This document shows, piece after piece, positions 3,920 to 46,786 of a DNA stretch of 64,000 nucleotides. Below the pieces are notes generated by a model. The model was not told the DNA's origin, ran no database searches, and was given only the letters and a program-made list of their open reading frames with translations. Where the stretch lies: positions 48,433 through 112,432 of the forward strand of contig CAWAJB010000024.1 of the NCBI GenBank assembly GCA_963782185.1, read 5' to 3'. This stretch comes from an uncultured Actinomycetes bacterium. GTDB taxonomy: Bacteria > Actinomycetota > Actinomycetes > Streptosporangiales > Streptosporangiaceae. A program made the translations under genes and the position numbers. Numbering within the stretch: position 1 is the first letter of the stretch; each line of letters begins with the position of its first letter.

Positions 3920-4231
3920 ACCTCGCTCGTGACGGCAGGATTGCCGCCGGCCGCATGCCGGGGCGGCTGGGCCCGCAGGCGGCCGGCTGATCCGGACGGG
4001 TCAGGCCTGCTCAGCGGCGAGCAGGGCCCCGGTCCGCCTGGGCCGGCCCGGGGTGCCTGCGGCGGTCGGTCGGGCAGCTCGGGACCAGTAGTGGGTTGCA
4101 GCCATGACCCCATGATGGAAGCCAAATCCCTATAATGTCAATAGGGAAAATCGAGATACCGGGAAACCCTTCCGGGGATGGTGTTCCGGGGGGGCCCGCA
4201 CGCGGGAGGCAACAGGGCGGGGGGCGGGGGG

Positions 4232-8239: not shown

Positions 8240-9934
8240 ATGGATCACCGCAACTCTCGACCCGCCGCCGGGCAGTCGGCCGCGGGTCCATCCGGCGCGG
8301 CCGCCCTCAGCCGGGCCGCCGACACCGCCGCTGACCGGATCTACCGCCGCCGCTGGGCCATCCTCGGTGTGCTGGTCGTCAGCCTCATCGCCATCGTGCT
8401 GGACAACACCGTGCTGAACGTCGCGCTCAAGACCATCGCCGAGCCCAAGCCGGCTGGCCTGGGTGCCAGCCAGAGCCAGCTCGAGTGGGGCATCAACTCC
8501 TACACGCTGGTGTTCGCCGGCCTGCTGTTCACCTTCGGGGTGATCGGTGACCGGATCGGCCGCAAGAAGATGCTGATGTTCGGCATGGCTGCCTTCGGCC
8601 TGTTCTCCTTGCTCACCGCGTACTCGCGCAGCCCGGAGATGCTGATCTTCGCCCGGGCGGCCATGGGCCTCGGCGCGGCGGCCGTCATGCCGCAGACGCT
8701 GTCCATCATCTCCAACGTGTTCGATCCCCGCGAGCGCGCCAAGGCCATCGGCATCTGGGCCACCGCCGTCGGCATCGGCGTGGCGATCGGCCCGATCGTC
8801 GGCGGCCTGCTGCTGGCCCACTTCTGGTGGGGCAGCGTCTTCCTGATCAACGTCCCGCTCACCGCGGCCGGGGTGCTGGCCATCCTGCTGCTCGTGCCGG
8901 AGTCACGGAACCCCAACCCGGGCCGGATCGACTACGCGGGCGTCGTGATGTCCATCGTCGGCCTGGTGCTCGTGGTGTACGGCATCATCCAGGGCGGCGA
9001 GAAGGGCACCTGGATCCACTGGGACGTGCTCGGCATCACCGTCGCGGGGCTCGCGGTGCTGGCCCTGTTCGGCTGGTACGAGACCCGGCTGGCGCACCCG
9101 TCGCTGGACGTGAAGCTGTTCCGCGACCCGCGCCTGTCCTCCGCGGTCGGCGCGCTCGGGCTGGTCTTCTTCGGCATGATGGGCGCGCTGTTCTTCCTCA
9201 GCTTCTACCTGCAGAGCGTGCGCGGTTACAGCCCGCTGGACGCGGGCCTGCTGACGCTGCCGTTCGCGGCGGGCCAGATGCTGATGGCGCCCCGCAGCGC
9301 CCGGCTGGTCAGGCGGTACGGCACCAAGGCCGTCGCCGCGACCGGGCTGGTCACCGTGGCGGTCGCGCTGGGCGGCTACCTGCTGCTCGGCGTGAGCACC
9401 CCGATCTGGGTGCTGGGCGTCATCTTCTTCATCCAGGGCGCGGGCATGGGCACCGTGATGCCCCCGGCCACCGAGGCCGTCATGTCCGTGGTGCCCCGGG
9501 AGCGGGCCGGCTCCGGCTCGGCGCTGACCAACACCGCCCGCCAGGTCGCCGGGGCACTTGGCGTCGCGGTCCTCGGCTCGATCCTGGCCCAGGTCTACCG
9601 TGGCCAGCTCAGCCCGCACCTGACCGCACTGCCCGCTGCCGCCCAGAACGCCGCAACGGGATCTATCGCGGCGACTCAGGCCGTGGCTGGCCGGCTGGGT
9701 CACGCGGGACTGCGTCTCGACCAGTTCGGTGACGCCGCCTTCGTGCACGCGATGCATGTCACCACGGCCATCTCCGCGGTGATCACGCTGGTGGGCGCGC
9801 TGGTCGTGCTGATCTGGATGCCGGGCCGCCCAGCGGCCCAGACCCCGTCCGCCGAGGCTGGGACGGCTGCGGCGGACGTGCACGCCGAGGAGGTCCCGGC
9901 GGGGGTTACCGCCGAGGCCGTGATGGAAAGCTAG
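8240..9934 (+). CDS. MFS transporter, DHA2 (EmrB/QacA-like, 14-TMS) drug:H+ antiporter family
   Basis: WAILGVLVVSLIAIVLDNTVLNVALKTI, GDRIGRKKMLMFGMAAFGLFS and many hydrophobic segments. The internal ATG at 8240 (MDHRNS...) is preferred to the track start at 8057. Confidence 0.85.
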   Translation: MDHRNSRPAAGQSAAGPSGAAALSRAADTAADRIYRRRWAILGVLVVSLIAIVLDNTVLNVALKTIAEPKPAGLGASQSQLEWGINSYTLVFAGLLFTFGVIGDRIGRKKMLMFGMAAFGLFSLLTAYSRSPEMLIFARAAMGLGAAAVMPQTLSIISNVFDPRERAKAIGIWATAVGIGVAIGPIVGGLLLAHFWWGSVFLINVPLTAAGVLAILLLVPESRNPNPGRIDYAGVVMSIVGLVLVVYGIIQGGEKGTWIHWDVLGITVAGLAVLALFGWYETRLAHPSLDVKLFRDPRLSSAVGALGLVFFGMMGALFFLSFYLQSVRGYSPLDAGLLTLPFAAGQMLMAPRSARLVRRYGTKAVAATGLVTVAVALGGYLLLGVSTPIWVLGVIFFIQGAGMGTVMPPATEAVMSVVPRERAGSGSALTNTARQVAGALGVAVLGSILAQVYRGQLSPHLTALPAAAQNAATGSIAATQAVAGRLGHAGLRLDQFGDAAFVHAMHVTTAISAVITLVGALVVLIWMPGRPAAQTPSAEAGTAAADVHAEEVPAGVTAEAVMES

Positions 9935-26181: not shown

Positions 26182-27561
26182 CTACGCGGCGGGGTGACCG
26201 CCGGGTCCGCTGGCCGGGCTGGCGGGATGCGGCTCCGGGTGGCCGGGCGCAGCCGGTCCCGGGTCGCCGGCCGCCGCGGGCGTCGGGGCGAGGCGCGCCG
26301 AGAGGACGTAGGCCACCACGACGGCCACGATGACCAGCGGCATGACGGCCAGGCCGTCCGAGGCCAGCAGCAGGGACGCCAGCAGGACCGAGGTCAGCGG
26401 CAGCCGGAGCATCACCACGGACATCGCGCCGATGCCCATGGCCACGCCCGCGACCAGCGGCAGCCCCGGCAGGTGCGACAGCGCGACGCCGCCCACCCCG
26501 CCGAGGAACAGGGCCGGGAACGTCGGGCCGCCGCGGAAACTGCTCAGCGAGATGCCGTAGGCGAGTCCCTTGCAGGCCAGGAGCAGCAGCAACGCCCCAA
26601 CGGTGTAGCTGGCGCTGTGTGAGATGAACGGGCCGAGTTGTGACTGCCCGGAGAACAGTACCTCTTCCGAGCCCTTGCCGGTCGCGGCCGCGAACGCGAT
26701 GGCCAGCCCCGCGACGGCCAGGCCCACGAGCGGGGTGATCAGCAGGATGCGCCGCTCCACATGCGGCCGCAGGAGCAGGCCCAGCCAGCGGATGGCGCTG
26801 CCGAACGGAACGGCCAGCACGCCGATGACCAGCGCCCAGCCGAACTCGGCCGCCGTAGGCGATCCGAAGTGGGGCAGGCCGGGAATGGCCAGCGAGAACG
26901 TGCCCAGTCCCGTCCACGCGTCGAGCCCGATGAATACGAGGGAACCGATGCCCGCGGCCAGCAGGCCGGGGATCAGCACGAGCTCCATCATGGCCCCGCC
27001 CAGCCCGGTGGCCTCCATCAGCAGGAAGGCCCCGGTCAGGGGGGAGCCGAGCAGGGTGGCGATGGCGGCGAAGCTGCCGGCCGCCGCGACCACGGTCTGG
27101 GTGCGGGCCGGGGCGTCCCGCTTGGCCAGCCGGACGGCGACTACGCCGAGCCCGCCGCCGAGGGCGATCAGCGGGGCCTCGGGGCCGAGGACCACGCCCA
27201 GGCTCAGGGTCGCGAAGGCGGCGAGGACGATGCCGGGAAGCTCGATGGGGGGCGCCGGCCCGCCGCCCATCTTGAACCCGTCGGCAGGGGAGTGGCCGCC
27301 CGTCCCGGGCAGGTACCGGAGGGTGAGGGCGACCAGCACTCCTGCCACCACCAGCGGCAGGAGGGGCCACCACAGCGGCTCACCGTGGAAGCCGAGGCCC
27401 TTGGGCAGGTCGGTGAAGACCCAGCCCTGCATCTTGGCGACCAGGGCGAGAAAGAAGTAGGCCACCGCCGAGATGGGCGCGCCGATGATCGCGGCCAGCA
27501 CCAGCAGGGCGACGTAGCTGCGCGACCGCAGCAGCGCCAGCGGGTCGGATGGCATGGTCAC
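26182..27561 (-). CDS. ClC-family voltage-gated chloride channel / H+:Cl- antiporter
   Basis: GPEAPLIALGGGLG and GSPLTGAFLLME selectivity-filter-like motifs in a polytopic 459-aa protein. Confidence 0.85.
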   Translation of the reverse strand: MTMPSDPLALLRSRSYVALLVLAAIIGAPISAVAYFFLALVAKMQGWVFTDLPKGLGFHGEPLWWPLLPLVVAGVLVALTLRYLPGTGGHSPADGFKMGGGPAPPIELPGIVLAAFATLSLGVVLGPEAPLIALGGGLGVVAVRLAKRDAPARTQTVVAAAGSFAAIATLLGSPLTGAFLLMEATGLGGAMMELVLIPGLLAAGIGSLVFIGLDAWTGLGTFSLAIPGLPHFGSPTAAEFGWALVIGVLAVPFGSAIRWLGLLLRPHVERRILLITPLVGLAVAGLAIAFAAATGKGSEEVLFSGQSQLGPFISHSASYTVGALLLLLACKGLAYGISLSSFRGGPTFPALFLGGVGGVALSHLPGLPLVAGVAMGIGAMSVVMLRLPLTSVLLASLLLASDGLAVMPLVIVAVVVAYVLSARLAPTPAAAGDPGPAAPGHPEPHPASPASGPGGHPAA

Positions 27562-27592
27562 GGCACGTCCTCCTCAACGGCTTGATCGCCGG

Positions 27593-28237
27593 TCATGTGA
27601 CGAGCAGGTACAGGCTCTTGCCGGCCAGCCAGAACCCCAGCAGCAGGGAAATCACGATGATCACCTGGTCCTGATGGGTGTCCAGCCAGGTCCGCAGCTT
27701 CTGGATGAGGGCGCCGGCCGCGGCCGGCCGGAAGGCCGCCGACAGCTCCAGGTACAGGAAGCTGGAGGTGGCCAGCAGGCAGAACAGCAGCAGGACCAGG
27801 TATTCCCCGGCGTTCGAGAGCTTGGCCTGGCTGACCGTGGCCGCGCCCGCCGCGACGAGGGTCCACGGCTGGAGGAAGGCGGCCAGCCCGGCCGCGCTCC
27901 ACGCCGAGAACCGGTCCAGCCTGGCCATCCAGGCCGGGGTCTTGCGCGGGCGGCCCCGGCGGCGCTCCTGCCGGACGGCGTAGAGGATCAGCACGACGCC
28001 CAGGGCCAGCTTGATGGCCAGGACCGCGGTCAACGGCGCCGTGCTCGGCGCCGGGGGCTTACCCCCGGTGAGCAGGACCACGGCGGCGATGACCACGACC
28101 AGGCAGGCCAGCCAGCCCAGGATGAAGGCCAGGCCTTTGATGGTGCCCCTGTCCGCGCTGAGGATCAGCAGGAACGCGATGAGCGGGAACGGCTCCAGGG
28201 TGATGCCCAGGCCGATGAGGAGCAGGTCAGCAACCAC
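27593..28237 (-). CDS. GAP family (Sap/DUF2910-like) membrane protein
   Basis: MVADLLLIGLGITLEPFPLIAFLLILSADRGTIKGLAFILGWLACL, with about 6 TMs and a central basic loop RQERRRGRPRKTPAW. It is a paralogue of 44340..44999. Confidence 0.65.
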   Translation of the reverse strand: MVADLLLIGLGITLEPFPLIAFLLILSADRGTIKGLAFILGWLACLVVVIAAVVLLTGGKPPAPSTAPLTAVLAIKLALGVVLILYAVRQERRRGRPRKTPAWMARLDRFSAWSAAGLAAFLQPWTLVAAGAATVSQAKLSNAGEYLVLLLFCLLATSSFLYLELSAAFRPAAAGALIQKLRTWLDTHQDQVIIVISLLLGFWLAGKSLYLLVT

Positions 28238-28891: not shown

Positions 28892-33742
<4,851 letters not shown>

Positions 33743-33781: not shown

Positions 33782-35660
33782 TTACCCGAAGGTGGCCGCA
33801 CGGTTAGGTTCCTGATCGGACTCGATCAGCAGCGATACGGCCTCGATCAGGGCCAGGTGCGTGAACGCCTGCGGGAAATTGCCCATGTGCTCGCCGGTGC
33901 TGGTGTCGATCTCCTCCGCGTACAGCTGCAGCGGCCCGGCGAACGACAGCAGCTTCTGGCACAGGGCGCGTGCGCGCTCCGTTTCACCGATCATGGCCAG
34001 CGCACTCACCAGCCAGAAGGAGCAGATGGTGAAGGTCCCTTCCTTGCCCTCGAACCCGGTGTCGGTTCCCTCGACCTTGTAGCGCAGGACCAGGCCGTCC
34101 TCGGTCAGCTCGTCGGCGATGGCCAGCACCGTCGCCCTGATGCGCTTGTCGTCGGGAGGCAGGAATCCCATGATGGGCAGGAGCAGGAGCGACGCGTCGA
34201 GGTCGTCGGTCTCGTCGTGCTGGCGGAACACGCCCCGCTTGGACACGTCCTTGTTCAGGACGTCGGCCTTGATCTCGTCGGCACCGGCCCGCCAGCGCTT
34301 GGCGCGTTCGCCGTCGCCGCGTTCCTCGGCCAGGTCGGCGCCGCGGGAGGCTGCGACCCAGCACATCACCTTGGACGCCGTGAAGTGCTTAGGGTCGCCG
34401 CGGACCTCCCAGATACCCTGGTCGGGCTCGTGCCAGCGCTGCAGGGCGTCGTCTACGAAGATGGCGAGCCCTTCCCAGACGGCGGCGACGATCTGGCCGG
34501 CGCCGGAGTGGAACTGGACATCCAGCGCGTCCAGGATCATCCCCCACACGTCGTGCTGCTGCTGGTTCCAGGCCCCGTTGCCGACCCGGACCGGGCGTGC
34601 GCCCCGGTAGCCGGACAGGTGGTCGAGGGTGTGCTCGGTCAGGTCGCGTTCCCCGCCGATGCCGTACATGATCTGGAGCTCGGGACGGCGGTTGAGGTCG
34701 CCCCCGGTGACCGCCTCCAGGATGAAGCCCCAGTACTCGATCGCTTCCCAGTCGAACCCGAGCCGGTACAGCGAACGGAGCATGAACGCTGAGTCCCTGA
34801 TCCAGGTGAAGCGGTAGTCCCAGTTACGGGCCCCGCCCCAGGTTTCCGGCAGTGAGGTGGTCAACGCGGCCATGATCGCGCCGGTGGGAGCGTAGCTGAG
34901 CCCCTTCAGGGTCAGCGCGCTGCGGTCCAGGTAGGTCTTCCATGGATGGTCAGGAATCTTGGCTGAGCTCAGCCAGTCGCGCCAGAAATCGACCGTGCAG
35001 TTCAGCGTGCGCTGCGCCTCGTCCAGGTCAGCCGGCGCGCTGGCCGCCCGCCCAGGACAGCGCGACGAAAGCCGACTGGCCCTCAGCCAGCGTCGTGCGG
35101 CCGTAGCAGCGAGCCCCCAGCACGCCGAGCGGGATAGAGCCTGCCAGGTCGAGATGCACGTCCCCCTCGGCGGGGGTAATGCTCATAGCGTCGTAGCCGT
35201 CGCCCTGGTAGTTCCACTGGCCAGCCGTCCGCCCGTACTCGAACTGCGGGTTGCAGTTCACGACGGCCTCGACCCGGCCGCTGATGCACGTGGCGATCCG
35301 GACCAGCGCGCCGACGGCGCCGAAATCGGCAGGGGCCCGGTGGTAGTCCGGCCGCCGCCCCTCGTGCTGGACCGGGCCCATGGCCAGGAAGTCCTGCACG
35401 ACCATCCATCCGGTCGGGGTCTGCCAGGTGGTCTCCAGCACATTGGTGCCCGGTACGTACCGGCGATGCTGCGGCACGTGCGTATTGCCGGGACCGAACC
35501 GGAACAACCCGGCCGAGCGGTCCATCAGCGCCCCGAAGACACTCGGGGAATCCGGCCGGGGCAGGCACAGCCACTCGACCGTCCCGTCCGGGGCAACCAG
35601 GCAGCTCTGCTCGCAATTCGACAGGAACCCGTAATCGGCAATCGGCGGGAATGTGCTCAT
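33782..35660 (-). pseudogene. GH15 glycoside hydrolase (glucoamylase / actinobacterial trehalase-like), interrupted by a frameshift
   Basis: The N-terminal 210 codons (IADYGFLSNCEQSCLVAPDGTVEWLCLPRPDSPSVF...FVALSWAGGQRAG*) stop at TGA 35028-35030. The expected continuation (APADLDEAQRTLNCTVDFWRDWLSSAKIPDHPWKTYLDRSALTLKGLSYAPTGAIMAALTTSLPE..NWDYRFTWIRDS) runs in a different frame from about 35040 down to 33782. Confidence 0.85.
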
Positions 35661-35694
35661 CGGCGAGTCACCTTTCGCAGTCGGGATAGGAGCG

Positions 35695-37287
35695 TCAGGC
35701 CATCCGGCTCAGCAGGTGCTCGCCGACGCGGATCGCGTTGGCCATGGCGGTGAGCGCCGGGTTCACGGCCCCGATGCTCGGGAAGAAGCTCGTGTCCACG
35801 ACGTAGAGGTTGTCGATCTCGTGCGCCTTGCAGTCGACGTCGAGTACCGACGTGGCCGGGTCCGTGCCGAACCGGCAGGTGCCCGACTGGTGGGCGACGC
35901 CGGCCACCGGGACGTCCATGCTGGCGTAGAAGTTCTTGCTCAGCACGTGATGGGCGGCGATCCCGATGTGGTTGAGCACCTTCCGCAGCTCGTGGTACAG
36001 CCCGTCCGCCTCGGCGTCGTTCGTCGCCTGGTAGGCGAGGTGCACGTGACCGTCCCGGTCCACCGTCACCCGGTTGTCCGGCTTGGGCACGTCCTCGGTC
36101 GTGAGCCAGAAGTCGACGGCGTGCCGGGCGACCTCCTCCAGGCTCCACTTCGGGGCCAGCTTGGTGAGCGTGGGCTCCTCGCCCTTCATGGCCATCGCGT
36201 TGGACTTGCCGAGCATCTGGATGTTGCCCAGCGGCCATTCCCGGCCGTTGCCCGCGAGGTAGAAGTCGTTCAGCCCGAGCGTCTTCTGGAACACCGTGTC
36301 GTTACGTTCCTTATCGAGCGCCACGATGGCCTTGCTGTTGTGGTACATGTAGTTGCGGCCGACCTGGTCGGACCCGTTGGCCAGGCCAGCCGGGTGCTGG
36401 TCGGAAGCCGACCGGAGCAGGATCCTCGCGCTGTTGGCCGCGCCGGCCGAGACGACCACGATGTCGCCTTCGTAAGATTCCTGCTTGCCGTCGCGGGTTA
36501 CCTGCACGCGGGTGACCGTCCGGCCGGACGGGTCCGTGTCGAGGCGCTCCACCTCCGCGTTCACCAGCAGGGTCACGTTCGGCTGGTCGAGCAGGGGGCG
36601 CACGGCGATGACGTCGGCGTCTGACTTGGCGTGCACCAGGCACGGGTAGCCGTCGCACGTGGCGCAGCGGATGCAGGCACTGAGCGGCCGGTCAGCCTCG
36701 TTCAGCAGGATGCCCACCGGGGCGTGGAACGGATGATAGCCACCGGCCGCCAGCGCATCGGAGATCTGCTGGACCCGCGGTTCGTGCGAGACCGCGGGCC
36801 AGGGGTACTCCTTCGAGCAGTGGCCCTCGGTGGGATCTTCACCATGGGTGCCGTGCACCTGGTACAGCCACTCGGCCTTCGTATACCAGGGCTCGAACTC
36901 GTCGTAGCTCAGCGGCCAGGCCGGCGCGGGGCCGTCGGCGTGCCTGATCTCGCCGAAGTCCTCGGGGCGCAGCCGGTACAGCGCGGCACCGTAGAGCTTG
37001 GTGGCCCCGCCGACGTAGTAGTGCACCTGCGGCTGGAACGCCTTACCGTCAGTGTCGAACCACGAGTCCGGCGAGATGTACCTCCCGTCCACGAACACCG
37101 TGCCGGGATCCCAGTTTCCGAGCTCGCGGGGCAGGAAATTGCCCCGCTCGAGCAGCAGTATCCGCTTGCCCGACGGAGCCAGGGTGTGCGCCAGCGTCCC
37201 GCCGCCCGCACCGCTGCCAACAATGATCACGTCATAGTTTTCAGCCACATACCCGAATGTCCGGGGTTGGTGCACGCGGCACATCAC
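35695..37287 (-). CDS. GMC family FAD-dependent oxidoreductase
   Basis: YDVIIVGSGAGGGTLAHTLAPSGKRILLLERG (FAD ADP-binding motif) and C-terminal NLYVVDTSFFPSIGAVNPALTAMANA. The start may be a few codons downstream of 37287. Confidence 0.85.
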   Translation of the reverse strand: MMCRVHQPRTFGYVAENYDVIIVGSGAGGGTLAHTLAPSGKRILLLERGNFLPRELGNWDPGTVFVDGRYISPDSWFDTDGKAFQPQVHYYVGGATKLYGAALYRLRPEDFGEIRHADGPAPAWPLSYDEFEPWYTKAEWLYQVHGTHGEDPTEGHCSKEYPWPAVSHEPRVQQISDALAAGGYHPFHAPVGILLNEADRPLSACIRCATCDGYPCLVHAKSDADVIAVRPLLDQPNVTLLVNAEVERLDTDPSGRTVTRVQVTRDGKQESYEGDIVVVSAGAANSARILLRSASDQHPAGLANGSDQVGRNYMYHNSKAIVALDKERNDTVFQKTLGLNDFYLAGNGREWPLGNIQMLGKSNAMAMKGEEPTLTKLAPKWSLEEVARHAVDFWLTTEDVPKPDNRVTVDRDGHVHLAYQATNDAEADGLYHELRKVLNHIGIAAHHVLSKNFYASMDVPVAGVAHQSGTCRFGTDPATSVLDVDCKAHEIDNLYVVDTSFFPSIGAVNPALTAMANAIRVGEHLLSRMA

Positions 37288-37453
37288 ACCTGCAGGGTGA
37301 CTCCGGGCCAGTTACTGCGAGCAGGATTCCAGCGTGCCCTCGGAAGAGCCGCGGGTGCGGCCGGTTCTGCGCCGGGCCGGCGGCGGTTACCGCCGGAGCG
37401 GTCACCCCAACCGGGTGAACCGTTTCCCGCGTCACCGTCATAGGTTGCCCCCC

Positions 37454-38338
37454 ATGTCCGCCGATCCATTGCCGAGCTGGCATGAGACCGCCGCGAAGCA
37501 GTCCATCGTGGAGTTCGTCGCCGCCGTGACCCATCCTGGCTCGCCGGACTTCGTCCCGGAGCCGGACCGGGTCGCGGTCTTCGACAACGACGGCACTCTG
37601 TGGACCGAGCAGCCCGTGTACGCGCAGCTCGTGTTCGCGCTGGACCGGGCGGTCCAGCTCGGTCATCCCACCAGCCTGGAAGCGCTGCACGCGGGCGGGA
37701 TGCCGGCCCTGATTGAGCTGATCAAGCTCACTCACGCCGGCATCACCACCGATGAATTCGACGCCCTGTGCCGGAGCTGGCTGGCGTCGGCCCGGCATCC
37801 CCGCTTCGGGCGCCCGTACCCGGCGATGGTGTACCAGCCCATGCTGGAGCTGCTCGGGCTGCTGGACCGCAGCGGATTCTCCTGCTGGATCTTCTCCGGC
37901 GGCGGCACGGATTTCATGCGCACCTGGGCGTCCGACGTCTACGGCCTGCCACCGCACCGGGTGATCGGCAGCGTCGGGGACACCGAGTTCCGCGTCGGAG
38001 CGGACGGCCCTGAACTCGTCAAGGGCAGTGACCTCCAGGTCATCAACGACGGCCCGCAGAAGCCGAGTTCGATCCACCGACATGTCGGGCAGCGCCCGAT
38101 CCTGGCCGCCGGGAACACCGACGGCGACCTGGCCATGCTCCAGTGGACCGCGGCTGGCCCGGGCCGGACGCTGCAGCTGGTCGTCCACCACACGGACGGC
38201 GACCGGGAGTACGCCTACGACCGCGACCCGATCCTGGGCAGCGGCACGGACCAGATCCGCGCGGCCGCCGCCGACGACAAGTGGACCGTGATCGACATGA
38301 CGGCGGACTGGTCAGCCGTCCACCCGCCGGCCGTCTAG
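37454..38338 (+). CDS. HAD-superfamily hydrolase (HAD-IB-like)
   Basis: VAVFDNDGTLW is the DxDGT HAD motif I, and AAGNTDGDLAML is motif IV-like. The internal ATG at 37454 is preferred to the track start at 37334. Confidence 0.65.
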   Translation: MSADPLPSWHETAAKQSIVEFVAAVTHPGSPDFVPEPDRVAVFDNDGTLWTEQPVYAQLVFALDRAVQLGHPTSLEALHAGGMPALIELIKLTHAGITTDEFDALCRSWLASARHPRFGRPYPAMVYQPMLELLGLLDRSGFSCWIFSGGGTDFMRTWASDVYGLPPHRVIGSVGDTEFRVGADGPELVKGSDLQVINDGPQKPSSIHRHVGQRPILAAGNTDGDLAMLQWTAAGPGRTLQLVVHHTDGDREYAYDRDPILGSGTDQIRAAAADDKWTVIDMTADWSAVHPPAV

Positions 38339-38456
38339 CCGGGGCCGGCCCGGCTCTCCGGTGGCATACATGGCGTAACCACCCATGAAGGGGGATGCCC
38401 CGATATCCGAGGGCGGGTGACAGTAAAGCTCAACGACTAACGCCCGGGACGGTGGC

Positions 38457-38738
38457 ATGTCTACTAGCACGGAAAGCAACAGCAGCTGGCCGGAACTGCG
38501 AACCGGCCCGATCATCACGAGCGCCGCGCTCGTCGGGGCCGGCACCCTGATCGCCCTGGCGGGCCTGGCCGTCGGCGGCACGCATCTGTTCGCGGCCACC
38601 CGCCGGTGGATCCAGCAGATGGACGTGCCGCCCAGCGAGCAGGCCAGGATCAAGTGGGCGCAGGCCAGGAGCGCCGCTGCCGCCGGCAACGCCGCCTGGC
38701 GCAACGGGGCCTCGGCCCGCCAGAGCACCGGGGCCTAA
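38457..38738 (+). CDS. small hypothetical membrane protein (one predicted TM) upstream of cydA
   Basis: 93-aa ORF with GPIITSAALVGAGTLIALAGLAVGG and non-random composition (N, S, W, Q, K). It ends 55 nt before cydA. No family recognised. Confidence 0.4.
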   Translation: MSTSTESNSSWPELRTGPIITSAALVGAGTLIALAGLAVGGTHLFAATRRWIQQMDVPPSEQARIKWAQARSAAAAGNAAWRNGASARQSTGA

Positions 38739-38793
38739 GCCCCGGCGGTTTACTGGACGGGCAGCCAATCGTGCACCCAGACCGGGGGAGTAG

Positions 38794-40179
38794 ATGACGA
38801 ACGTCGACCTCGCGCGGTGGCAGTTCGCGTTTGTGACGATCAATCATTTCTTTTTCGTGCCGGTCACGATCGGCCTGGCCTTCCTGACCGCGCTGCTGCA
38901 GACCGCCTGGTACCGCAGCAAGCGGGAGGAGTACCTGCGGCTGACCCGGTTCTTCGGCACCCTGCTGGTCATCAACGTGGCGATCGGCGTGGTGACCGGC
39001 CTGGTCCAGGAGTTCCAGTTCGGGATGAACTGGTCGGCCTACTCGCGGCTGGTCGGCAACATCTTCGGCGCGCCGCTGGCCATGGAGGGGCTGGCCGCGT
39101 TCTTCCTGGAGTCCACGTTCCTCGGGCTGTGGCTGTTCGGCTGGGACAAACTCCCCCGCCGTATTCACCTGCTGACCATCTGGCTGGTGTCGCTGGGCAC
39201 GGTGCTGTCGGCGGCGTTCATCATGGCGGCCAACTCGTGGATGCAGCATCCGGTCGGCTACAAGATGGTCAACGGGAAACCGCAGCTGAACGACATCTGG
39301 GCCGTGTTCACCAACCAGGTGTTCGTCTGGGGATATTCGAAGGTGCTGCTGGCGTCGCTGGTCACCGGCGCCGCGGTGATGCTGGCGGTCTCGGCCTGGC
39401 AGTTGCGGCACGGGGGGGACCGCGAGGTGTTCACCCGGTCGGCGCGGCTCGCGCTGATCGTGCTGGTCCCGGCCATCCTGTTCACCATGCTGGTCGGCGA
39501 TGAGCTCGGGGTGATCGAGGCCAAGTACCAGCCGATGAAGATCGCGGCGGCCGAGGCCCAGTGGTCTACCTGCCAGCCGTGCTCGTTCTCGCTGTTCCAG
39601 ATCGGCGGCGGCAATAACGACCACACGCCCACCCAGATCATCGAGATCCCGCACCTGCTGTCACTGCTGGCCACCAACCACTGGAATGGCAAGGTGATTG
39701 GCCTCGACCCGCTCCAGTCGCAGTACCAGAAACAGTTCGGGCCCGGCTACTACGTGCCGAACGTGTTCATCCAGTACTGGTCCATGCGGGTGATGGCCTA
39801 TATGGGGGTCCTGGTCTTCCTGCTGGGGGCCTGGGGGCTGTGGCTGCTGCGGCGCGGGAAACTCGTGACGTCGCGGCGGTTCCTGTGGGTGGCGATCTGG
39901 GGCGCGGTGCTGCCGTTCCTGATGAACACGGCGGGCTGGCTGCTGACCGAGAGCGGCAGGCAGCCGTGGATCGTGCAGGGCATCATGCTGACCAAAAACG
40001 GGGTCTCGTCCTCGGTCAGCGTCACGTCCATCGTGATCAGCCTGGTGGTTTTCGTGGTGCTGTACGCCACGCTGGCGACCGTCGACCTGATGCTGATGCT
40101 GAAGTACTCCCGCCAGCAACTCCCGCCCGCCCGCGCTGAAGCCGACGCGGACGCGCCCGTCCCGGCCGTCCAGTACTGA
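38794..40179 (+). CDS. cydA: cytochrome bd ubiquinol/menaquinol oxidase subunit I
   Basis: DLARWQFAFVTINHFFFVPVTIGLAFLTALLQTAWY...GVVTGLVQEFQFGMNW...EGLAAFFLESTFLGLWLFGW is the canonical CydA N-terminus. 461 aa. Confidence 0.95.
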   Translation: MTNVDLARWQFAFVTINHFFFVPVTIGLAFLTALLQTAWYRSKREEYLRLTRFFGTLLVINVAIGVVTGLVQEFQFGMNWSAYSRLVGNIFGAPLAMEGLAAFFLESTFLGLWLFGWDKLPRRIHLLTIWLVSLGTVLSAAFIMAANSWMQHPVGYKMVNGKPQLNDIWAVFTNQVFVWGYSKVLLASLVTGAAVMLAVSAWQLRHGGDREVFTRSARLALIVLVPAILFTMLVGDELGVIEAKYQPMKIAAAEAQWSTCQPCSFSLFQIGGGNNDHTPTQIIEIPHLLSLLATNHWNGKVIGLDPLQSQYQKQFGPGYYVPNVFIQYWSMRVMAYMGVLVFLLGAWGLWLLRRGKLVTSRRFLWVAIWGAVLPFLMNTAGWLLTESGRQPWIVQGIMLTKNGVSSSVSVTSIVISLVVFVVLYATLATVDLMLMLKYSRQQLPPARAEADADAPVPAVQY

Positions 40180-40186
40180 GGTCACG

Positions 40187-41275
40187 ATGAACAGCCTGAT
40201 CCCGTTCTGGTTCATCATCATCACCGTGCTGTGGACCGGTTTCTTTGTCCTGGAGGGCTTCGACTTCGGCGTGGGCATGCTGCATGGCGCGGTCGGCCAG
40301 GATGACGCGGGCCGCCGGGCGGCGATCAACACCATCGGGCCGCTGTGGGACGGTAACGAAGTGTGGCTGATCGTGGCCGGGGCCGCCTTGTTCGCCGCGT
40401 TTCCCGGCTGGTACGCCACCATGTTCTCGGGCTTCTACCTGGCGCTGGTGCTGCTGCTGGCCGCGCTCATCGTCCGCGGCGTGTCGTTCGAGTACCGTGG
40501 CAAGCGCGACGCGCTGCAGTGGCGCCGCACCTGGGACGTCTCGCTGACCGCGAGCAGCCTGCTGGCCCCGCTGCTGATCGGGGTGGCACTAGGCGACCTG
40601 CTGCACGGGCTGCCGATCAACTCCCACCAGGAGTACACGGGGTCATTCTGGAACCTGCTCCAGCCGTACGGGGTGTTCACCGGGGTCACCCTGGTGCTGA
40701 TCTGCCTGCTGCACGGCGCGACGTTCCTGGGCCTGAAGACCACCGGCGACATGCACGAGCGCGCGGGGCGGATAGCCCGCCGGGTGGCCCCGGCGACCGC
40801 CGCCGCTGTCGTGGCCTTCGCCATCTGGACGCACGTGACGTCCAGCACGACCTTCTTCGTCAACCCCATCGAACTGCTCGCCATGCTCGCCGTCCTCGCC
40901 GCCGTGTGGCTCGTCTATGAGCGCCGGGACGGCTTCGCGTTCGCGGCGACCACGGTCACGATGGCGGCCTGCATCGTCTCGATCTTCGTTGGCCTGTATC
41001 CCAACGTGATGGTCTCCAGCACCAGCGCGGCCTACAACCTCACCGTGCACAACACGGCGTCCGGAGCCTATTCGCTCAAGGTGATGACGGTCGTGGCCAT
41101 CATTTTCCTGCCGTTCGTCCTCGCCTACCAGACCTGGACCTACTACGTGTTCCGGCGGCGCGTCAGCAAGCAGGAATTCCAGCCCTCACCCCCGCGGGGC
41201 ACACCGCTGGACGCGGCCCGTCCGCGGCCGGCGCACCCCGACGGGACGGCCCCCCCGGCGGAACCGGGACATTGA
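40187..41275 (+). CDS. cydB: cytochrome bd oxidase subunit II
   Basis: IPFWFIIITVLWTGFFVLEGFDFGVGML...IGPLWDGNEVWLIVAGAALFAAFPGWYATMFSGFYL. It starts 7 nt after cydA. Confidence 0.9.
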   Translation: MNSLIPFWFIIITVLWTGFFVLEGFDFGVGMLHGAVGQDDAGRRAAINTIGPLWDGNEVWLIVAGAALFAAFPGWYATMFSGFYLALVLLLAALIVRGVSFEYRGKRDALQWRRTWDVSLTASSLLAPLLIGVALGDLLHGLPINSHQEYTGSFWNLLQPYGVFTGVTLVLICLLHGATFLGLKTTGDMHERAGRIARRVAPATAAAVVAFAIWTHVTSSTTFFVNPIELLAMLAVLAAVWLVYERRDGFAFAATTVTMAACIVSIFVGLYPNVMVSSTSAAYNLTVHNTASGAYSLKVMTVVAIIFLPFVLAYQTWTYYVFRRRVSKQEFQPSPPRGTPLDAARPRPAHPDGTAPPAEPGH

Positions 41276-41293
41276 CCGACACAGGGAGCGGAC

Positions 41294-42670
41294 ATGACCA
41301 CTAATCAAGTTGATGCACTGGTGATCTTCGGGGCCACCGGTGACCTGGCCAAGATCGAGACGTTCCCGGCGCTGGTCGGCCTGGTTGACCGGGGCGTGCT
41401 CAACGTGCCGGTCATCGGAGTGGCGAAGAGCGGCTGGGGGCTGCCGCAGTTCCGCGACTACGCGACCGCGTCGCTGCGGCTCAACCACATGGACCCCCAG
41501 ACGCCGGCCGCGCAGAAGATGCTCGGCCTGCTCCGCTACGTCAACGGGGACCTCGACGACGACGCCACCTACAAGGCCATGTCGGACGCGATCGGCTCCG
41601 GCAGCCGGATCCTGTACTACCTCGAGGTGCCGCCGCCGCTGTTCGGGCGCATCGCGCAGGGCATCGCCACGGCCGGCCGGGCCAAGGACGCGCGGGTCAT
41701 GGTGGAGAAGCCGTTCGGCACCGACCTGGCCAGCTCGCGGCAGCTCAACGACACCATGCACCAGTACTTCGGCGAGGACGCGATCTTCCGGGTCGATGAC
41801 TGGCTGGCCTTCGACCCGGTGGAGAACGTGCTGTTCGTCCGGTTCGCCAACTCGGTCATCGAGCCGCTGCTCAACCGGACCTACGTGGAAAGCATCCAGA
41901 TCACGATGGCCGAGGCGTTCGACGTCGCCGACCGTGGCCGGTTCTATGACCGGACCGGGGCGATCCGCGACGTGGTCCAGAACCACATGCTCCAGGTACT
42001 GGCCACCGTGCTGGCCGAGCCGCCGGACCGGCCACACCTGGCCGACTGGCGGGAGGCCAAGTCACGGGTGATCTCCGCGCTGCGGCCGCTGACCCCGGAG
42101 GACACGGTGAAGGGCCAGTACGCGGGCTACCACGAGGTCAACGGCGTCGACCCGAAATCGACGACGGAGACCTACGTCGCCGTCCGGCTCGCCGCCGACA
42201 CCTGGCGCTGGGAAGGCGTGCCGATCCTGATCCGGGCGGCCAAGTGCATGCCGGTGACCGCCACCGAGGTGAACATCCGCTTCAGGCGTCCGCCCCATGA
42301 CGTATTCGGGATCGATCCGTTCGCCGTCCGCGACTCGCTGCGGTTCCGGGTCTGGCCGGAGACCGCGGTCGGCCTCACCCTGGCCGGCAAGAAGCCCGGC
42401 GGTGGCATGGAGCCGCTGCTGGAGGACCTCACGTTCGCCGGGCAGCCGGGCTCGGACATGCGTCCCTACGACCGGCTCATCGGCGCGGCCCTGGACGGCG
42501 ACCGCTGGCTGTTCGCCCGCCAGGACACGGTCGAGGCCGCCTGGGAGGTCGTGGACCCGGTCCTGGGCGACGTCGGGCCCGTGCATCCCTACGCCCGGGG
42601 CAGCTGGGGTCCCGAGGAGGCCGACCGGCTGCTGCCCAGCCGGGATACCTGGCACGACCCGGCAGGATGA
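41294..42670 (+). CDS. glucose-6-phosphate dehydrogenase family protein (Zwf-like) with a degenerate substrate-binding signature
   Basis: LVIFGATGDLAK (NADP site), VEKPFGTDLASS, RFANSVIEP and GAIRDVVQNHMLQVL are conserved. The position of the RIDHYLGKE signature reads RVDDWLAFD (nt 41789-41815). Confidence 0.8.
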   Translation: MTTNQVDALVIFGATGDLAKIETFPALVGLVDRGVLNVPVIGVAKSGWGLPQFRDYATASLRLNHMDPQTPAAQKMLGLLRYVNGDLDDDATYKAMSDAIGSGSRILYYLEVPPPLFGRIAQGIATAGRAKDARVMVEKPFGTDLASSRQLNDTMHQYFGEDAIFRVDDWLAFDPVENVLFVRFANSVIEPLLNRTYVESIQITMAEAFDVADRGRFYDRTGAIRDVVQNHMLQVLATVLAEPPDRPHLADWREAKSRVISALRPLTPEDTVKGQYAGYHEVNGVDPKSTTETYVAVRLAADTWRWEGVPILIRAAKCMPVTATEVNIRFRRPPHDVFGIDPFAVRDSLRFRVWPETAVGLTLAGKKPGGGMEPLLEDLTFAGQPGSDMRPYDRLIGAALDGDRWLFARQDTVEAAWEVVDPVLGDVGPVHPYARGSWGPEEADRLLPSRDTWHDPAG

Positions 42671-42686
42671 GCGGCGGGAGCATGCG

Positions 42687-44087
42687 ATGACAGACCAATC
42701 GGGACAGCGCCAGGTGGTGATCATTGGCGGCGGCTTCGCAGGCCTGTTCGCGGCCCGCAGGCTGAAGCACGCCGACGCCTCCGTAACCATGATCGACAGG
42801 GCTCAGCATCACGTGTTCCAGCCGCTGCTCTACCAGTGCGCGACCGGCATCATGTCCGAGGGGAAGATCGCCGCCCCGCTGCGTGACCTGCTCAGGAAAT
42901 ACAAGAATGTCGATTGCGTCATGGCTGAAGTGTTCGATTTTGATGTCGTCGGCCGGCGGGTCCTGGCCCGCCGGGTCGGCGGCGAGCAGATCGAGTTCGG
43001 TTATGACGACCTCATCGTCGCCGCCGGGGTGCGGCAATCCTACTTCGGCCATCCCGAATTCGCCCGGTGGGCACCGGGGATGAAGACGGTCTCCGATGCG
43101 CTCGCGATCCGGCGCCGGGTCTACGGCGCGTTCGAGATGGCCGACACGGCCAGCACCCCGGAAGAACGCCGCACCTACCTCACCTTCGCCCTGGTCGGCG
43201 CCGGACCGACCGGCGTGGAACTAGCGGGGCAGGTCCGGGAGGTCGCCACCAAGACCCTCCGCGCCGAATTCCGGAATATCAAACCGGAGGACGCCCGGGT
43301 CCTGCTATTCGACGGCGGCAGCGCGCCGCTGGCCATGTTCGGCCCCAAACTGTCACAGAAAGCGGCCAAGGCCCTGGACGTGCTGGGCGTCGAGCAGCAC
43401 ATGGGATCCATCGTCACCCACGTCGACGAAGGCTATGTACTAGTCCGGGCCCACGACGGCACGCAGACCCGCTACGACGCCGGCACCGTGCTGTGGACCG
43501 CCGGGGTGGAAGCCCCGCCCGTCGCCGAGGCCCTCGCGGCCGCCACCGGCGCCCAGCGCGACCGGGCCGGGCGGATCCTGGTGGAGAAGAACCTCACCAT
43601 CCCCGACCATCCCGAGATCTCCGTCCTCGGCGACATGATGAGCCTGGACAAGCTCCCCGGGGTCGCCGAGGTGGCCATGCAGTCCGGGCTCTACGCCGGC
43701 AACCGCGTCCGGCACCGGATCTCCGGGGACGTGGAAGAAAAGCCGTTCCGTTACCACGACCTCGGCTCAGCCGCCTACATCTCCCGCGGCCGGGCCGTCG
43801 TCTCAGCCGGGCCCCTGCAGGTCGGCGGCTTCGCCGGCTGGGTGATCTGGCTGTTCATCCACATCGCGTTCCTTACCGGCTGGCGCAACCGCGTCGGCGC
43901 CCTCTTCAGCTGGTGGTTCGCCTTCACCCGCGACATCCGCCGCGAACGCACCTTCACCACCCAGCAGATCGAGACGCTGGGCGACGTCTACACGCTCCCC
44001 CTGGGTCCGGCAGGACCGGAGTCAGGCGCTCAATCGTCCGCGGGCCCCAGCGGTATCAGCGGCGGCGGAAAGGCGGCACATCCGTGA
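42687..44087 (+). CDS. ndh: type II NADH:quinone oxidoreductase (NDH-2)
   Basis: RQVVIIGGGFAGLFAARRL and FALVGAGPTGVELAGQV (two dinucleotide-binding motifs), HHVFQPLLYQ, and a C-terminal amphipathic/TM tail. The ATG at 42687 is preceded by GCGGGAG. Confidence 0.85.
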   Translation: MTDQSGQRQVVIIGGGFAGLFAARRLKHADASVTMIDRAQHHVFQPLLYQCATGIMSEGKIAAPLRDLLRKYKNVDCVMAEVFDFDVVGRRVLARRVGGEQIEFGYDDLIVAAGVRQSYFGHPEFARWAPGMKTVSDALAIRRRVYGAFEMADTASTPEERRTYLTFALVGAGPTGVELAGQVREVATKTLRAEFRNIKPEDARVLLFDGGSAPLAMFGPKLSQKAAKALDVLGVEQHMGSIVTHVDEGYVLVRAHDGTQTRYDAGTVLWTAGVEAPPVAEALAAATGAQRDRAGRILVEKNLTIPDHPEISVLGDMMSLDKLPGVAEVAMQSGLYAGNRVRHRISGDVEEKPFRYHDLGSAAYISRGRAVVSAGPLQVGGFAGWVIWLFIHIAFLTGWRNRVGALFSWWFAFTRDIRRERTFTTQQIETLGDVYTLPLGPAGPESGAQSSAGPSGISGGGKAAHP

Positions 44088-44305
44088 CCATAGGCGGCAG
44101 CATCGCGCTCATCGTGATCGGCGCAATTCTCCGATTCGGCATCACATGGAAGCCCGCGCACGTCGATCTCCAGGTCATTGGCGTGATCCTGATGATCGCG
44201 GGGGTGCTCGGCCTGATCATCGCCCTGGTGTTCCTGGCCCGGCGCCGCGGCCGGCCAGCGACCGAGGTGTACGAGGAGCGCCGCTACACCGACCCGCCGG
44301 CCTGA
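44084..44305 (+). CDS. small two-TM membrane protein (DUF6458-like)
   Basis: The GTG overlaps the ndh stop (GTGA). VTIGGSIALIVIGAILRFGI...VDLQVIGVILMIAGVLGLIIALVFLARRR fits my recollection of DUF6458. Confidence 0.5.
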   Translation: MTIGGSIALIVIGAILRFGITWKPAHVDLQVIGVILMIAGVLGLIIALVFLARRRGRPATEVYEERRYTDPPA

Positions 44306-44339
44306 CGGGAGGGCTGCGCCGGCCCGCGCGGGCCGGCTA

Positions 44340-44999
44340 TCAGCCTCCAGCCAGCCCGAAGATGCCGTTGCCGACCATGATGGCGCCGCCCGCGAGCAGC
44401 ACCCCGATGAGGATCTTGTTCCCGTTCGCGCGCAGCCAGCCGTTGAACGCCGTCAGGCGCTGGGTGGTAACGCCGGGCGCGATCAGGTGCAGCAACAGGG
44501 GCAGCCACACGAAAGCCGCATTGATGATCACGACGAGGACGATGGCCACCGTGGTGTATTCGATGTCCGCGTTGGCGGTGGCGATCACCTGCAGGGCGGC
44601 GATGAACGTGAGGCCCGGGGCGAACAGGAGCAGGCCGACGGCGAACGCGCTGGCCGGCGCGGGATCGGCGATCATCCGTGACACGAGCCCCTGCTTCTTG
44701 TCGGGGTCGGGCAGCTTCGGCTTCCGCCGGGCCGCCGCGGCGCCCGCCGCGAGCAGCAGGATGCCGAGGCCGAGGCGCAGGCCGTAGCGGGGGGTGTGCG
44801 CGCTGCGATGGCTCAGGCCGGTGTTACGCAGGATCGCGATGACGACCAGGCCCATGACCAGGCTCATGATGATCGCGCCGGCCAGGTAGAGGGTCCCGAC
44901 CAGCCTGGGCCGGGCCGAGCCGAGGTAGACGGCCGCCACCAGCAGTGCCGTCGGGGAGATCGCGGCCAGCACCGCCAGCCCGGCCGCCTGCAGGATCAT
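44340..44999 (-). CDS. GAP family (Sap/DUF2910-like) membrane protein
   Basis: MILQAAGLAVLAAISPTALLVAAVYLGSARPRLVGTLYLAGAIIMSLVMGLVV, with a central loop ARRKPKLPDPDKKQG. Same architecture as 27593..28237. Confidence 0.65.
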   Translation of the reverse strand: MILQAAGLAVLAAISPTALLVAAVYLGSARPRLVGTLYLAGAIIMSLVMGLVVIAILRNTGLSHRSAHTPRYGLRLGLGILLLAAGAAAARRKPKLPDPDKKQGLVSRMIADPAPASAFAVGLLLFAPGLTFIAALQVIATANADIEYTTVAIVLVVIINAAFVWLPLLLHLIAPGVTTQRLTAFNGWLRANGNKILIGVLLAGGAIMVGNGIFGLAGG

Positions 45000-45162
45000 G
45001 GGGTCGCCGGGCTTCCGCCTTCTGACACGGGCCCCCCCGCGTGACCCGCGTCAGACATTGCGCGCCTCCTGGCTCGTCGCTCCGGTGCTCCCGCCGCCGA
45101 TCACGGTCGCCGCGCCGGCAGCGTCCCCCGCTTGCTCACGGTCTCGCGCGAGCGTCTCCAGC

Positions 45163-45187
45163 CGCCTCCCCCCGCAGGGGTGAGGCG
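45163..45187 (-). terminator. GC-rich hairpin downstream of the glutamate decarboxylase gene (candidate terminator)
   Basis: cgcctcccccc-gca-ggggtgaggcg, with 10 of 11 stem positions paired. It lies about 65 nt beyond the gad stop (45251). Confidence 0.35.
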
Positions 45188-45250
45188 CGTCGCCACGTTC
45201 TGCAGCGCCGGCCGGCCGCCGGGCCGCTTACCGAGCGTGAGACGGCCGGG

Positions 45251-46651
45251 CTAGAGGTGGTTGAACCCCGCCGATTCCTCCTTGGTCATGGGCACGGTGA
45301 CCGGGTGCTTGCCGAAGTGGGCCACCGCGTCGCGGAAGTCGTCGAGCAGCAGGGAGGCCATGTCCTGGCTGACGCCGAGGCGGACCAGGATGCGCTGCAC
45401 GGCTATGCCGGAAGCGGAGCCGGTGAGGGTGTAGGCCGGCACCTGCCACCCCTGGGTGCGCAGCCGGTCGGCCAGGTCGAACAGCGTGTAACCAGGGTCC
45501 TCGCCCTCGCGGATCCGCCAGGTGACCGTCGGGATTCCCGTGTTCGGGTTGCTGTCACACAAGAGCTCGAACGGGCCCAGCTTGACGATCTCGGTGGCCA
45601 GGTACTGGCCGATGTCGTAGGACGCCTGGTGGATCCGGCGGTACCCCTCGTGACCGAGGCGCAGGAAGTTGTAGTAGCTGGCGATGATCTGCCCGGCCGG
45701 CCGGGAGAAGTTGATCTGGAAGACGGGCATGTCGCCGCCCAGGTAGTTGACGTGGAAAATGAGGTCATCGGGCAGCTCGCTGCTGTCCCGGAAAACGACC
45801 CAGCCAACACCCAGCGGAGCCAGCCCGAACTTGTGCCCTGAGGCGCTGATCGACTTGACCCGCGGGAGGCGGAAGTCGAAGACCACCCCGGGCGCGCAGA
45901 ACGGGGCGAGGAAACCGCCGCTGGCCCCGTCCACGTGGATGTCGATGTCCAGGCCGGTGTCGGCCTGCAACTTGTCCAGCGCCTTCGACATCTCCTCCAC
46001 CGGCTCATACGCGCCGGTGTAGGTGACGCCAAGCGTCGGCACGACCATGATCGTGTTCTCGTCAACCCGTTCGAGCATCGAGGCCGGGTCCATCATGTAG
46101 CGGCCCGGTGACATCGGGACCTCGCGCATCTCGATGTCCCAGTAGCGGGCGAACTTGTGCCACACCACCTGCACCGGGCCGCACACCATGTTCGGCCTGT
46201 CCGCCGGCTTGCCTGCGGCCCGGCGCTTGGCCCGCCAGCGCCACTTGGCCGCCATCCCGGCCAGCATGCAGGCCTCGGAGGAGCCGACGGCCGAGGTGCC
46301 CACCGTGTTGGCCGCCTCGGGCGCATTCCACAGGTCGGCCATCATGTGCACGCACCGCTTCTCGATCTCGGCGGTCTGCGGGTACTCGTCCCGGTCGATC
46401 ATGTTCTTGTTGACCGACAGCGCCATCAGGCCAAGAACCTCGGGTTCCTCCCACGTCTGGCAGAACGTGGCCAGGTTCTGCCGCGCATTCCCGTCGAGCA
46501 TCAGCTCGTCCGACACCAGCTGGAAAGCATCCCGGGAGACCGTCCCGTCCTGCGGGAACCGGTACTTAGCGACCGGCTTGGTCAGGTCCCGATCGGCGAA
46601 CACGCAGTCCTCAAGCTCGTCACGGACGGTCTCGCGGTCATGCAATGCCAT
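45251..46651 (-). CDS. gadB: glutamate decarboxylase (PLP-dependent, group II)
   Basis: [43 protein letters not shown]...[19 protein letters not shown] and the PLP-lysine motif [18 protein letters not shown]. The start at 46651 was chosen because AAGGAG lies 9 nt upstream. Confidence 0.9.
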
Positions 46652-46786
46652 GGTCAGCATCTCCTTGATGGGGAGCACTCCCGCAGCCGGTACCCCCCGG
46701 ACGATCGCTGCGTCAGGCACCCGGGCTCTTCGAGGACGGGGCCGCGCTGGTGATGTCGATGGTGGTCGCAGCGCCCGGCGCCGCCA

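Follow-up and report, generated by a model that had tools for sequence, protein, structure and literature searches.

A G6PD-family protein with a rewritten phosphate-binding signature in a cytochrome bd operon of uncultured actinomycetes

When a member of the glucose-6-phosphate dehydrogenase (G6PD) family has lost the signature with which it should hold its substrate, is it still an enzyme, and on what would it act? The question is raised by a 64,000-nucleotide stretch of DNA from an uncultured actinomycete (the window), in which a gene at 41294..42670 on the + strand encodes a G6PD-family protein of 458 amino acids within a cytochrome bd operon. Both Pfam domains match near their full length (G6PD_N, 6.4e-37; G6PD_C, 4.8e-79), placing the product in the two-domain G6PD family. 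Its sequence and gene context suggest that it likely acts on an unphosphorylated sugar, and make it moderately probable that it is an active NAD(P)+-dependent dehydrogenase of free glucose, coupled to type II NADH dehydrogenase (NDH-2) and cytochrome bd.

An altered signature in an otherwise intact active site

Where G6PD has RIDHYLGKE, residues 166-174 of the protein (41789..41815, +) read RVDDWLAFD, encoded by the codons cgg gtc gat gac tgg ctg gcc ttc gac in frame with the open reading frame (ORF) 41294-42670. A phmmer search against all PDB chains paired RVDDWLAFDPVE gap-free with RVDHFLGKQPVE of 4lgv (E 3.5e-111), and the same stretch of the query with RIDHYLGKE of 7xhp, 9emm and human 2bh9. 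Because the alignment to solved G6PD structures is gap-free, the register of the motif is right; the in-frame translation and these alignments bear out the replacement reported in the preliminary description of this stretch and dispose of the mis-registration that it had named as a possible refutation. The PROSITE signature of G6PD is D-H-[YF]-L-G-K-[EQK], in agreement with the consensus of 94 family members, and the D-D-W-L-A-F-D of the query fits it at two of the seven positions and so does not carry the Zwf signature. The other blocks that had been described as intact are all present in the ORF: the dinucleotide-binding fingerprint GATGDLA (residues 13-19; 41330..41350, +), invariant in the clade delimited below; EKPFG (residues 138-142; 41705..41719, +), whose Lys139 corresponds to Lys171 of human G6PD, a contact to the sugar of glucose 6-phosphate (G6P); RFAN (residues 183-186); and RDVVQNHMLQ (residues 225-234), of which RDVVQNH (residues 225-231; 41966..41986, +) provides Asp226, the equivalent of human Asp258, and His231, the equivalent of the catalytic His263.

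Annotation models are divided on this protein. It exceeds the cut-off of TIGR00871, the NCBI zwf equivalog, by 0.6 bit (401.2 versus 400.6 bits) and falls below those of the equivalog NF009492 (392.1 versus 428) and of NF004331 (168 versus 622). Because the TIGR00871 cut-off is just passed, pipelines name the proteins of the clade 'glucose-6-phosphate dehydrogenase', and both NCBI and JGI call such proteins G6PD.

In human G6PD, Asp200 and His263 form the catalytic dyad, the phosphate is bound by His201, Tyr202 and Lys205 together with Arg365 and Gln395, and the sugar is contacted by Lys171, Phe237, Glu239, Asp258 and Lys360, roles that agree with those assigned earlier to the His and Lys of the motif (phosphate) and to its Asp and the QNH histidine (dyad) (PMC11448927; PMC9303983). 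His201, Tyr202 and Lys205 were described by Wei et al. as strictly conserved in G6PD (PMC9303983). To map these residues, the query was placed in an alignment with human G6PD and 107 members of the family. Kept are human G38, G41 and D42 (query G13, G16 and D17), both dyad residues (D200 and H263; query D168 and H231) and the sugar contacts K171, E239, D258 and K360 (query K139, E207, D226 and K317). Changed are H201 to D169, Y202 to W170, G204 to A172, K205 to F173, R365 to T322 and Q395 to W354, the last encoded at 42353..42355 (+); Lys45 of the query stands for Arg72, the 2'-phosphate binder. The alignment thus agrees with the earlier account of a retained dyad beside replaced phosphate-binding residues (H to D, G to A, K to F), to which the exchange of Tyr202 for Trp is to be added.

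The replaced residues are close to universal elsewhere in the family, with His in 93/94, Tyr or Phe in 94/94, Gly in 82/94 and Lys in 89/94 of the other members, and the Gln395 position is Trp in 13/13 clade members versus Gln (58), Gly (10) or Asp (5) among the same 94. A stronger statement, by which none of the five phosphate ligands of human G6PD would survive, had to be tempered: the equivalents of Arg365 and Gln395 vary already in the nearest canonical relatives, and for this reason only the three ligands of helix f' and the gain of the clade-specific Trp354 are diagnostic. The dyad, the ring contacts and the coenzyme-binding residues are invariant in the clade.

Conservation of the altered state and its origin

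The RVDDWLAFD state is real and under purifying selection, and is neither an error nor the mark of a pseudogene. The FRVDDWLAFDPV motif is carried by 117 of the 120 homologues that matched best (84-94% identity); scanning a single genome for each species gave 444 related stretches, and RVDDWLAFD was found in 77 of 81 genome loci, short-read assemblies among them. The reading frame is intact in 85/85 coding sequences, with a median pairwise ratio of non-synonymous to synonymous substitution rates (dN/dS) of 0.18 relative to the window copy. Frameshifts in two nearby genes of the window do indicate an imperfect assembly, but the recurrence of the motif across many samples and assemblers, in intact frames held by selection, already refutes an assembly error or a decaying zwf pseudogene, to which we give practically no credence. 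The best 80 loci all come from metagenome-assembled genomes (MAGs) of uncultured Streptosporangiaceae-like or other actinomycetes, one of them labelled Alphaproteobacteria, and within the scan the RVDDWLAFD sub-clade has so far appeared only in uncultured Streptosporangiaceae-like MAGs.

Four sequences (L004, L062, P0029 and P0040) read RVNDWLAFD, in which the catalytic Asp168 becomes Asn through a GAC to AAC change. These variants arise in at least three lineages, and their nearest relatives have Asp. When GTCGAC sites throughout L003, L004, L027 and L062 were compared, near-identical loci read GTCAAC or GTTGAC in 4/9 and 5/7 cases, against a background mismatch of 4-10%. Given the scattered lineages and the excess mismatch at this palindrome, a loss of catalysis was rejected as their explanation; the likely cause is a systematic failure of long-read base calling at a methylated GTCGAC motif.

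Among representatives at 50% identity, searched exhaustively, there is a sister or ancestral group at ~70% identity that reads RVDHWLGL[DE]P, and all representatives at ≤48% identity to the query carry the canonical motif. This RVDHWLGLD group, which includes the cultured Pseudonocardia sp. D17, P. asaccharolytica and several Geodermatophilus species, has Trp170, Trp354 and a Leu for Lys205, with the His and Gly of the signature kept. In a neighbour-joining tree the two forms are monophyletic on one long stem, RVDHWLGLD being basal and RVDDWLAFD nested in a Streptosporangiaceae-like sub-clade. Judged from the tree and the alignments, RVDHWLGLD is the ancestral state, and loss of the His is a late step inside a larger clade defined by loss of the Lys. 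Lys205 was also lost independently in several small lineages of the family, with the motifs HFLGQ, HFLAM, HYLAV/HYLAA and HFLAQ (P0126, P0130, P0131, P0161 and P0391).

A recurrent neighbourhood of respiratory and sugar-releasing genes

Neighbouring genes were counted in 76 related loci with at least 14 kb of DNA, using flanks of 8 kb. NDH-2, the tightest partner, is present and adjacent in 71/76 loci, cydA (upstream) in 61/76 and a GMC-family oxidoreductase within 8 kb in 55/76; the glycoside hydrolase families GH15 and GH63 occur in 44/76 and 19/76, respectively, and at least one of GH15, GH63 and GlgX in 61/76. Because the hydrolase genes are found on either side of the G6PD-like gene and on either strand, their linkage survives rearrangement. 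Unbiased clustering of the neighbouring ORFs returned the same top families, together with MalT/LAL-type regulators (32 loci) and cydDC (19 loci), and turned up no sulfoquinovose or uronate genes. The module is complete twice on contig CAVSNQ010000013.1 (L057 and L060, ~820 kb apart), and two copies of it (GH15-GMC / cydAB-G6PD-like-NDH-2) are also represented by L050/L054, L052/L073 and L005/L047, with paired G6PD-like proteins 82-97% identical. The regulators, LuxR proteins of AAA_16, WHD_MalT and GerE architecture seen in 32/87 loci (for example L021, 6288-9134, and L001, 13641-15260), are possible regulators of the module; the window has none within 9 kb.

The association extends to distant lineages, where GH15 lies ≤3 kb from the G6PD-like gene in 5/6 contexts. 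The order is cydA-cydB-GH15-NDH-2-x-G6PD-like in Pseudonocardia sp. D17 (L084); GH15 is divergent from the G6PD-like gene in P. asaccharolytica (L087) and 2.6 kb away in Geodermatophilus aquaeductus (L082). One uncultured MAG (L086) has a single-strand, operon-like array, GMC-G6PD-like-NDH-2-cydD-cydC-cydA-cydB-GH15, with GH15 ~7 kb off, and another (L085) reads cydB-GH15-NDH-2-aldose 1-epimerase-...-GMC-G6PD-like. The aldose 1-epimerase (mutarotase) gene of the latter (3643-4572), between NDH-2 and the G6PD-like gene, fits a metabolism of free sugar anomers; seen in L085 only, it was rejected as a regular partner. In P0391, a separate Lys-less lineage (RVDHYLAAD) on a contig that carries RND-efflux and EarP genes and is apparently Gram-negative, the G6PD-like gene overlaps GH15 by 26 nt, an arrangement from which the two genes are predicted to be translationally coupled.

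Canonical relatives served as controls. Three proteins with DHYLGK adjoin 6PGD-TAL-PGI, PGI-PGM or TAL/XFP-6PGD genes (3/3), whereas a tblastn search for 6PGD, TAL, PGI and PGM found none of them across the 87 Lys-less loci and the 64-kb window. Because pentose-phosphate genes accompany the canonical controls and none of the Lys-less loci, motif state and neighbour type segregate together.

In the window itself, the operon runs cydA (cytochrome bd oxidase subunit I; 38794..40179, +; Pfam Cyt_bd_oxida_I, 2e-151), cydB (subunit II; 40187..41275, +; Cyt_bd_oxida_II, 5.5e-105), the G6PD-like gene, NDH-2 (42687..44087, +) and, as its final gene, a small DUF6458 membrane protein (44090..44305, +; Pfam DUF6458), with gaps of 7, 18, 16 and 2 nt and with GGGAG-type ribosome-binding sites; the earlier placement of the gene in a cyd operon is thus correct. 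The NDH-2 product matches 9mqy, 'NADH:ubiquinone reductase (non-electrogenic)', over residues 6-439 (E 4.6e-120), followed by Ndi1 and 4nwz; it is a two-Rossmann flavoprotein with a C-terminal membrane segment, as expected of the NDH-2 class, and its second Rossmann strand ends in an acidic residue (ARVLLFD, aligned to ARVILLD of 9mqy). Promoter and terminator hits in 37200-45200 were no more frequent than in shuffled sequence. A HAD-family hydrolase gene (37334..38338, +; Pfam HAD) lies directly upstream of cydA and in nine related loci, and the 456-nt gap between them holds an ORF of 93 codons whose product has a predicted membrane segment (38457-38738, +).

Divergent from the operon on the minus strand are a GMC-family FAD oxidoreductase gene (35695..37287, -; Pfam GMC_oxred_N/C) and, ~6 kb upstream of the G6PD-like gene, that of a GH15 trehalase-like hydrolase (33782..35708, -; TREH_N + GH15, Pfam GH15 1.7e-63), whose nearest NCBIfam model is the trehalase TreH1 (6e-113, under its cut-off). 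Farther upstream follow GlgX, a glycogen-debranching enzyme (31606..33742, +; TIGR02100, 776 bits versus a cut-off of 641), a GH63 / MGH1-like glycoside hydrolase (28892..31609, +; Pfam MGH1-like_GH, 7e-21), an SfLAP gene and a CLC channel gene; downstream of the operon lie a second SfLAP gene and glutamate decarboxylase. The CLC chloride channel, the two SfLAP membrane proteins and the decarboxylase flank the island (26182-28237, -; 44340-46720, -), and CLC and SfLAP recur near the G6PD-like gene in Pseudonocardia and Geodermatophilus; together with cytochrome bd, CLC and glutamate decarboxylase would resemble an acid-resistance set. The island sits in a conserved glnA-glnE ... lipA-lipB-lpd region.

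Candidate function, alternatives and known counterparts

A chain of reactions can be proposed that would join these genes. The pyranose form on which G6PD acts is the beta anomer. Trehalases of family GH15 work by inversion and release alpha- and beta-glucose (PMC10969515), and the GH15 trehalase-like hydrolase, in many genomes with GH63 and GlgX, would free unphosphorylated glucose from trehalose or alpha-glucan stores. Free beta-D-glucose would then be oxidized to gluconolactone by the dehydrogenase at no cost in ATP: its ring would be held by Lys139, Glu207, Asp226 and Lys317 in a phosphate pocket rebuilt as an aromatic and acidic one (Asp169, Trp170, Phe173 and Trp354), His231, polarized by Asp168, would abstract the proton of the C1 hydroxyl, and the hydride would pass to the nicotinamide. 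Such an enzyme would count among the NAD(P)+ glucose 1-dehydrogenases (EC 1.1.1.47/118/119), a class to which the retained ring and catalytic residues and the linkage to GH15 point indirectly. The co-transcribed NDH-2 would reoxidize the reduced coenzyme and pass electrons to menaquinone, and the co-transcribed cytochrome bd would hand them to O2. The coenzyme is probably NAD+, the NADH/NAD+ pair being favoured because an acidic residue characteristic of NADH-using enzymes is retained in NDH-2. Physiologically, stored sugar may be drawn on in this way when energy or oxygen is limiting or the pH is low; more tentatively, the genes might constitute a respiratory module of soil actinomycetes that is complete in itself, from storage sugar to oxygen, with traces in other phyla.

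Several observations weigh against this scheme. That the sugar would be glucose is read from gene context only, and 15 of the 76 full-length loci have no hydrolase gene within 8 kb. In the window, GH15 is frameshifted near 35034-35041 (tblastn, two frames), and so is GlgX near 31946-31980, with its N-terminal 125 amino acids in frame 1 and the remainder in frame 2 (tblastn); these frameshifts are either assembly indels or recent decay, and in the 97%-identical locus L002 GH15 is an intact ORF of 654 codons. If they are real, it is notable that two sugar-hydrolase genes beside the operon should be broken. A single uncultured Streptosporangiaceae-like lineage contributes most of the loci, and because they share ancestry their counts are not independent events. 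In L089, one of the canonical controls, a Pyr_redox_2 gene likewise lies downstream (8410-9801, 463 aa), from which the pairing of G6PD with a flavoprotein may predate loss of the phosphate pocket. Two of the five phosphate ligands already vary in canonical relatives, as noted above, and the clade has gained conserved arginines (R216, R220 and R390), which might form a different anion site; none of them stands at a position in the published G6P contact list (PMC9303983). An AlphaFold2 model of the query (30-sequence alignment, mean pLDDT confidence score 69) was discarded as a guide to pocket geometry and to the placing of the arginines, since the stretches with pLDDT <50 (residues 169-183, 310-320 and 355-389) are pocket elements.

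These arginines bear on two of the alternatives. The protein could be an active dehydrogenase of another sugar, such as another aldose, a 6-deoxy or 6-amino hexose, the reducing end of an oligosaccharide, or a negatively charged C6 analogue, for example sulfoquinovose or glucuronate, that the clade-specific arginines would hold. A pocket of Asp with Trp, Phe and Trp does resemble sugar-stacking or cation-binding sites, the GlgX and GH63 neighbours yield products besides plain glucose, and the specificity of the often adjacent GMC oxidoreductase is not established. Yet every glucose-ring contact is kept, the partner that recurs across orders and in the P0391 lineage, a GH15 trehalase-like enzyme, yields glucose, and the sulfoquinovose or uronate genes that such a substrate might bring were missing from the neighbourhood clusters; we consider another sugar rather unlikely. 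Less probable again would be a true G6PD that holds the phosphate in some other way, for instance through the new arginines, and that supplies NADPH beside the bd oxidase for defence against oxidative stress. The passing score for TIGR00871 and the names given by NCBI and JGI speak for it, as do the existence of the arginines, the retention of His201 in clade B and the variability of the Arg365 and Gln395 ligands even among canonical relatives. Against it stand the near-invariance of Lys205 and His201 in the other members, residues reported to be strictly conserved, the absence of the arginine positions from the known G6P contacts (PMC9303983), the repulsion that Asp169 would exert on a phosphate, the failed NF009492 model (392 versus 428), and the 0/87 loci with 6PGD, TAL, PGI or PGM as compared with 3/3 canonical controls.

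The preliminary description had left two possibilities, a different and perhaps non-phosphorylated sugar or a non-catalytic role, and the evidence separates them. The GH15, NDH-2 and cytochrome bd context without 6PGD, TAL, PGI or PGM neighbours supports the former. The latter, in which a G6PD-derived regulator, scaffold or NAD(P)(H) sensor would serve the NDH-2/bd branch, could appeal to the lost substrate signature, to the very tight pairing with NDH-2 (71/76) and to the few sequences with Asn at the catalytic Asp, although these are probably base-calling artefacts at GTCGAC. One would expect a pseudoenzyme to have shed its catalytic and ring-contact residues, and it is for that reason less likely here: the catalytic His and Asp, the Lys and cis-Pro of EKPFG, the ring contacts and the NAD(P)-binding residues are all kept under purifying selection, so that a non-catalytic role appears highly improbable.

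Oxidation of free glucose by an active enzyme remains the reading we prefer, as the simplest model to accommodate all the observations. The protein would be a functional variant within a known enzyme family, and the genes around it a sugar-to-respiration module that had not been described before; a literature search found no description of this clade or of a cyd/NDH-2/trehalase/G6PD cluster. Residues called strictly conserved in G6PD are absent from a whole clade under purifying selection. If the preferred reading is true, the name 'glucose-6-phosphate dehydrogenase' is wrong for hundreds of database entries, the G6PD fold has a new substrate class with the first bacterial member specialized for free glucose, and an unrecognized hard-wired link leads from trehalose and glycogen mobilization to the NDH-2/cytochrome bd branch, which would allow ATP-independent burning of trehalose in starvation, low oxygen or acid stress. 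This branch is under study in mycobacteria as a pathway of persistence and a drug target. The ancestral form is available in cultured Pseudonocardia and Geodermatophilus, which makes the free-glucose hypothesis directly testable.

Among known systems, the canonical bacterial Zwf (EC 1.1.1.49/1.1.1.363; nearest structure, 4lgv) shares with the query the two-domain fold, a length of ~460 aa, GxxGDL, EKPFG, the Asp-His dyad and the equivalents of Glu239, Asp258 and Lys360. The query differs from it in having Asp for His201, Trp for Tyr/Phe202, Ala for Gly204, Phe for Lys205 and Trp at the Gln395 position, and in its neighbours, which are cydAB, NDH-2, GH15 and GMC where Zwf has 6PGD, TAL, PGI or opcA. 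Closest is the RVDHWLGLD group of Pseudonocardia sp. D17, P. asaccharolytica and Geodermatophilus spp. (69-75% identity), annotated 'glucose-6-phosphate dehydrogenase' and uncharacterized, which has in common with the query Trp170, the loss of Lys205, Trp354, Lys45 and the partners GH15, NDH-2, cydAB, GMC and CLC, but keeps His201 and Gly204 and has Leu, not Phe, at position 205. H6PD ('GDH/6PGL endoplasmic bifunctional protein', PDB 8em2), matched at 9e-32, is a G6PD-family protein whose name records a glucose dehydrogenase activity; unlike the query, it is eukaryotic, fused to 6PGL and acts mainly on hexose 6-phosphates. It keeps the RxDHYLGK signature. The paralogue FGD2 (Rv0132c) of the F420-dependent G6PD of Mycobacterium tuberculosis is without the phosphate pocket and was found experimentally to be a glucose dehydrogenase (PMC13434993). 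FGD2 is an unrelated luciferase-like TIM barrel that uses F420, not NAD(P), and is associated with the cell envelope; by analogy, it would be a precedent, in another fold, for the passage from loss of a phosphate pocket to glucose dehydrogenase.

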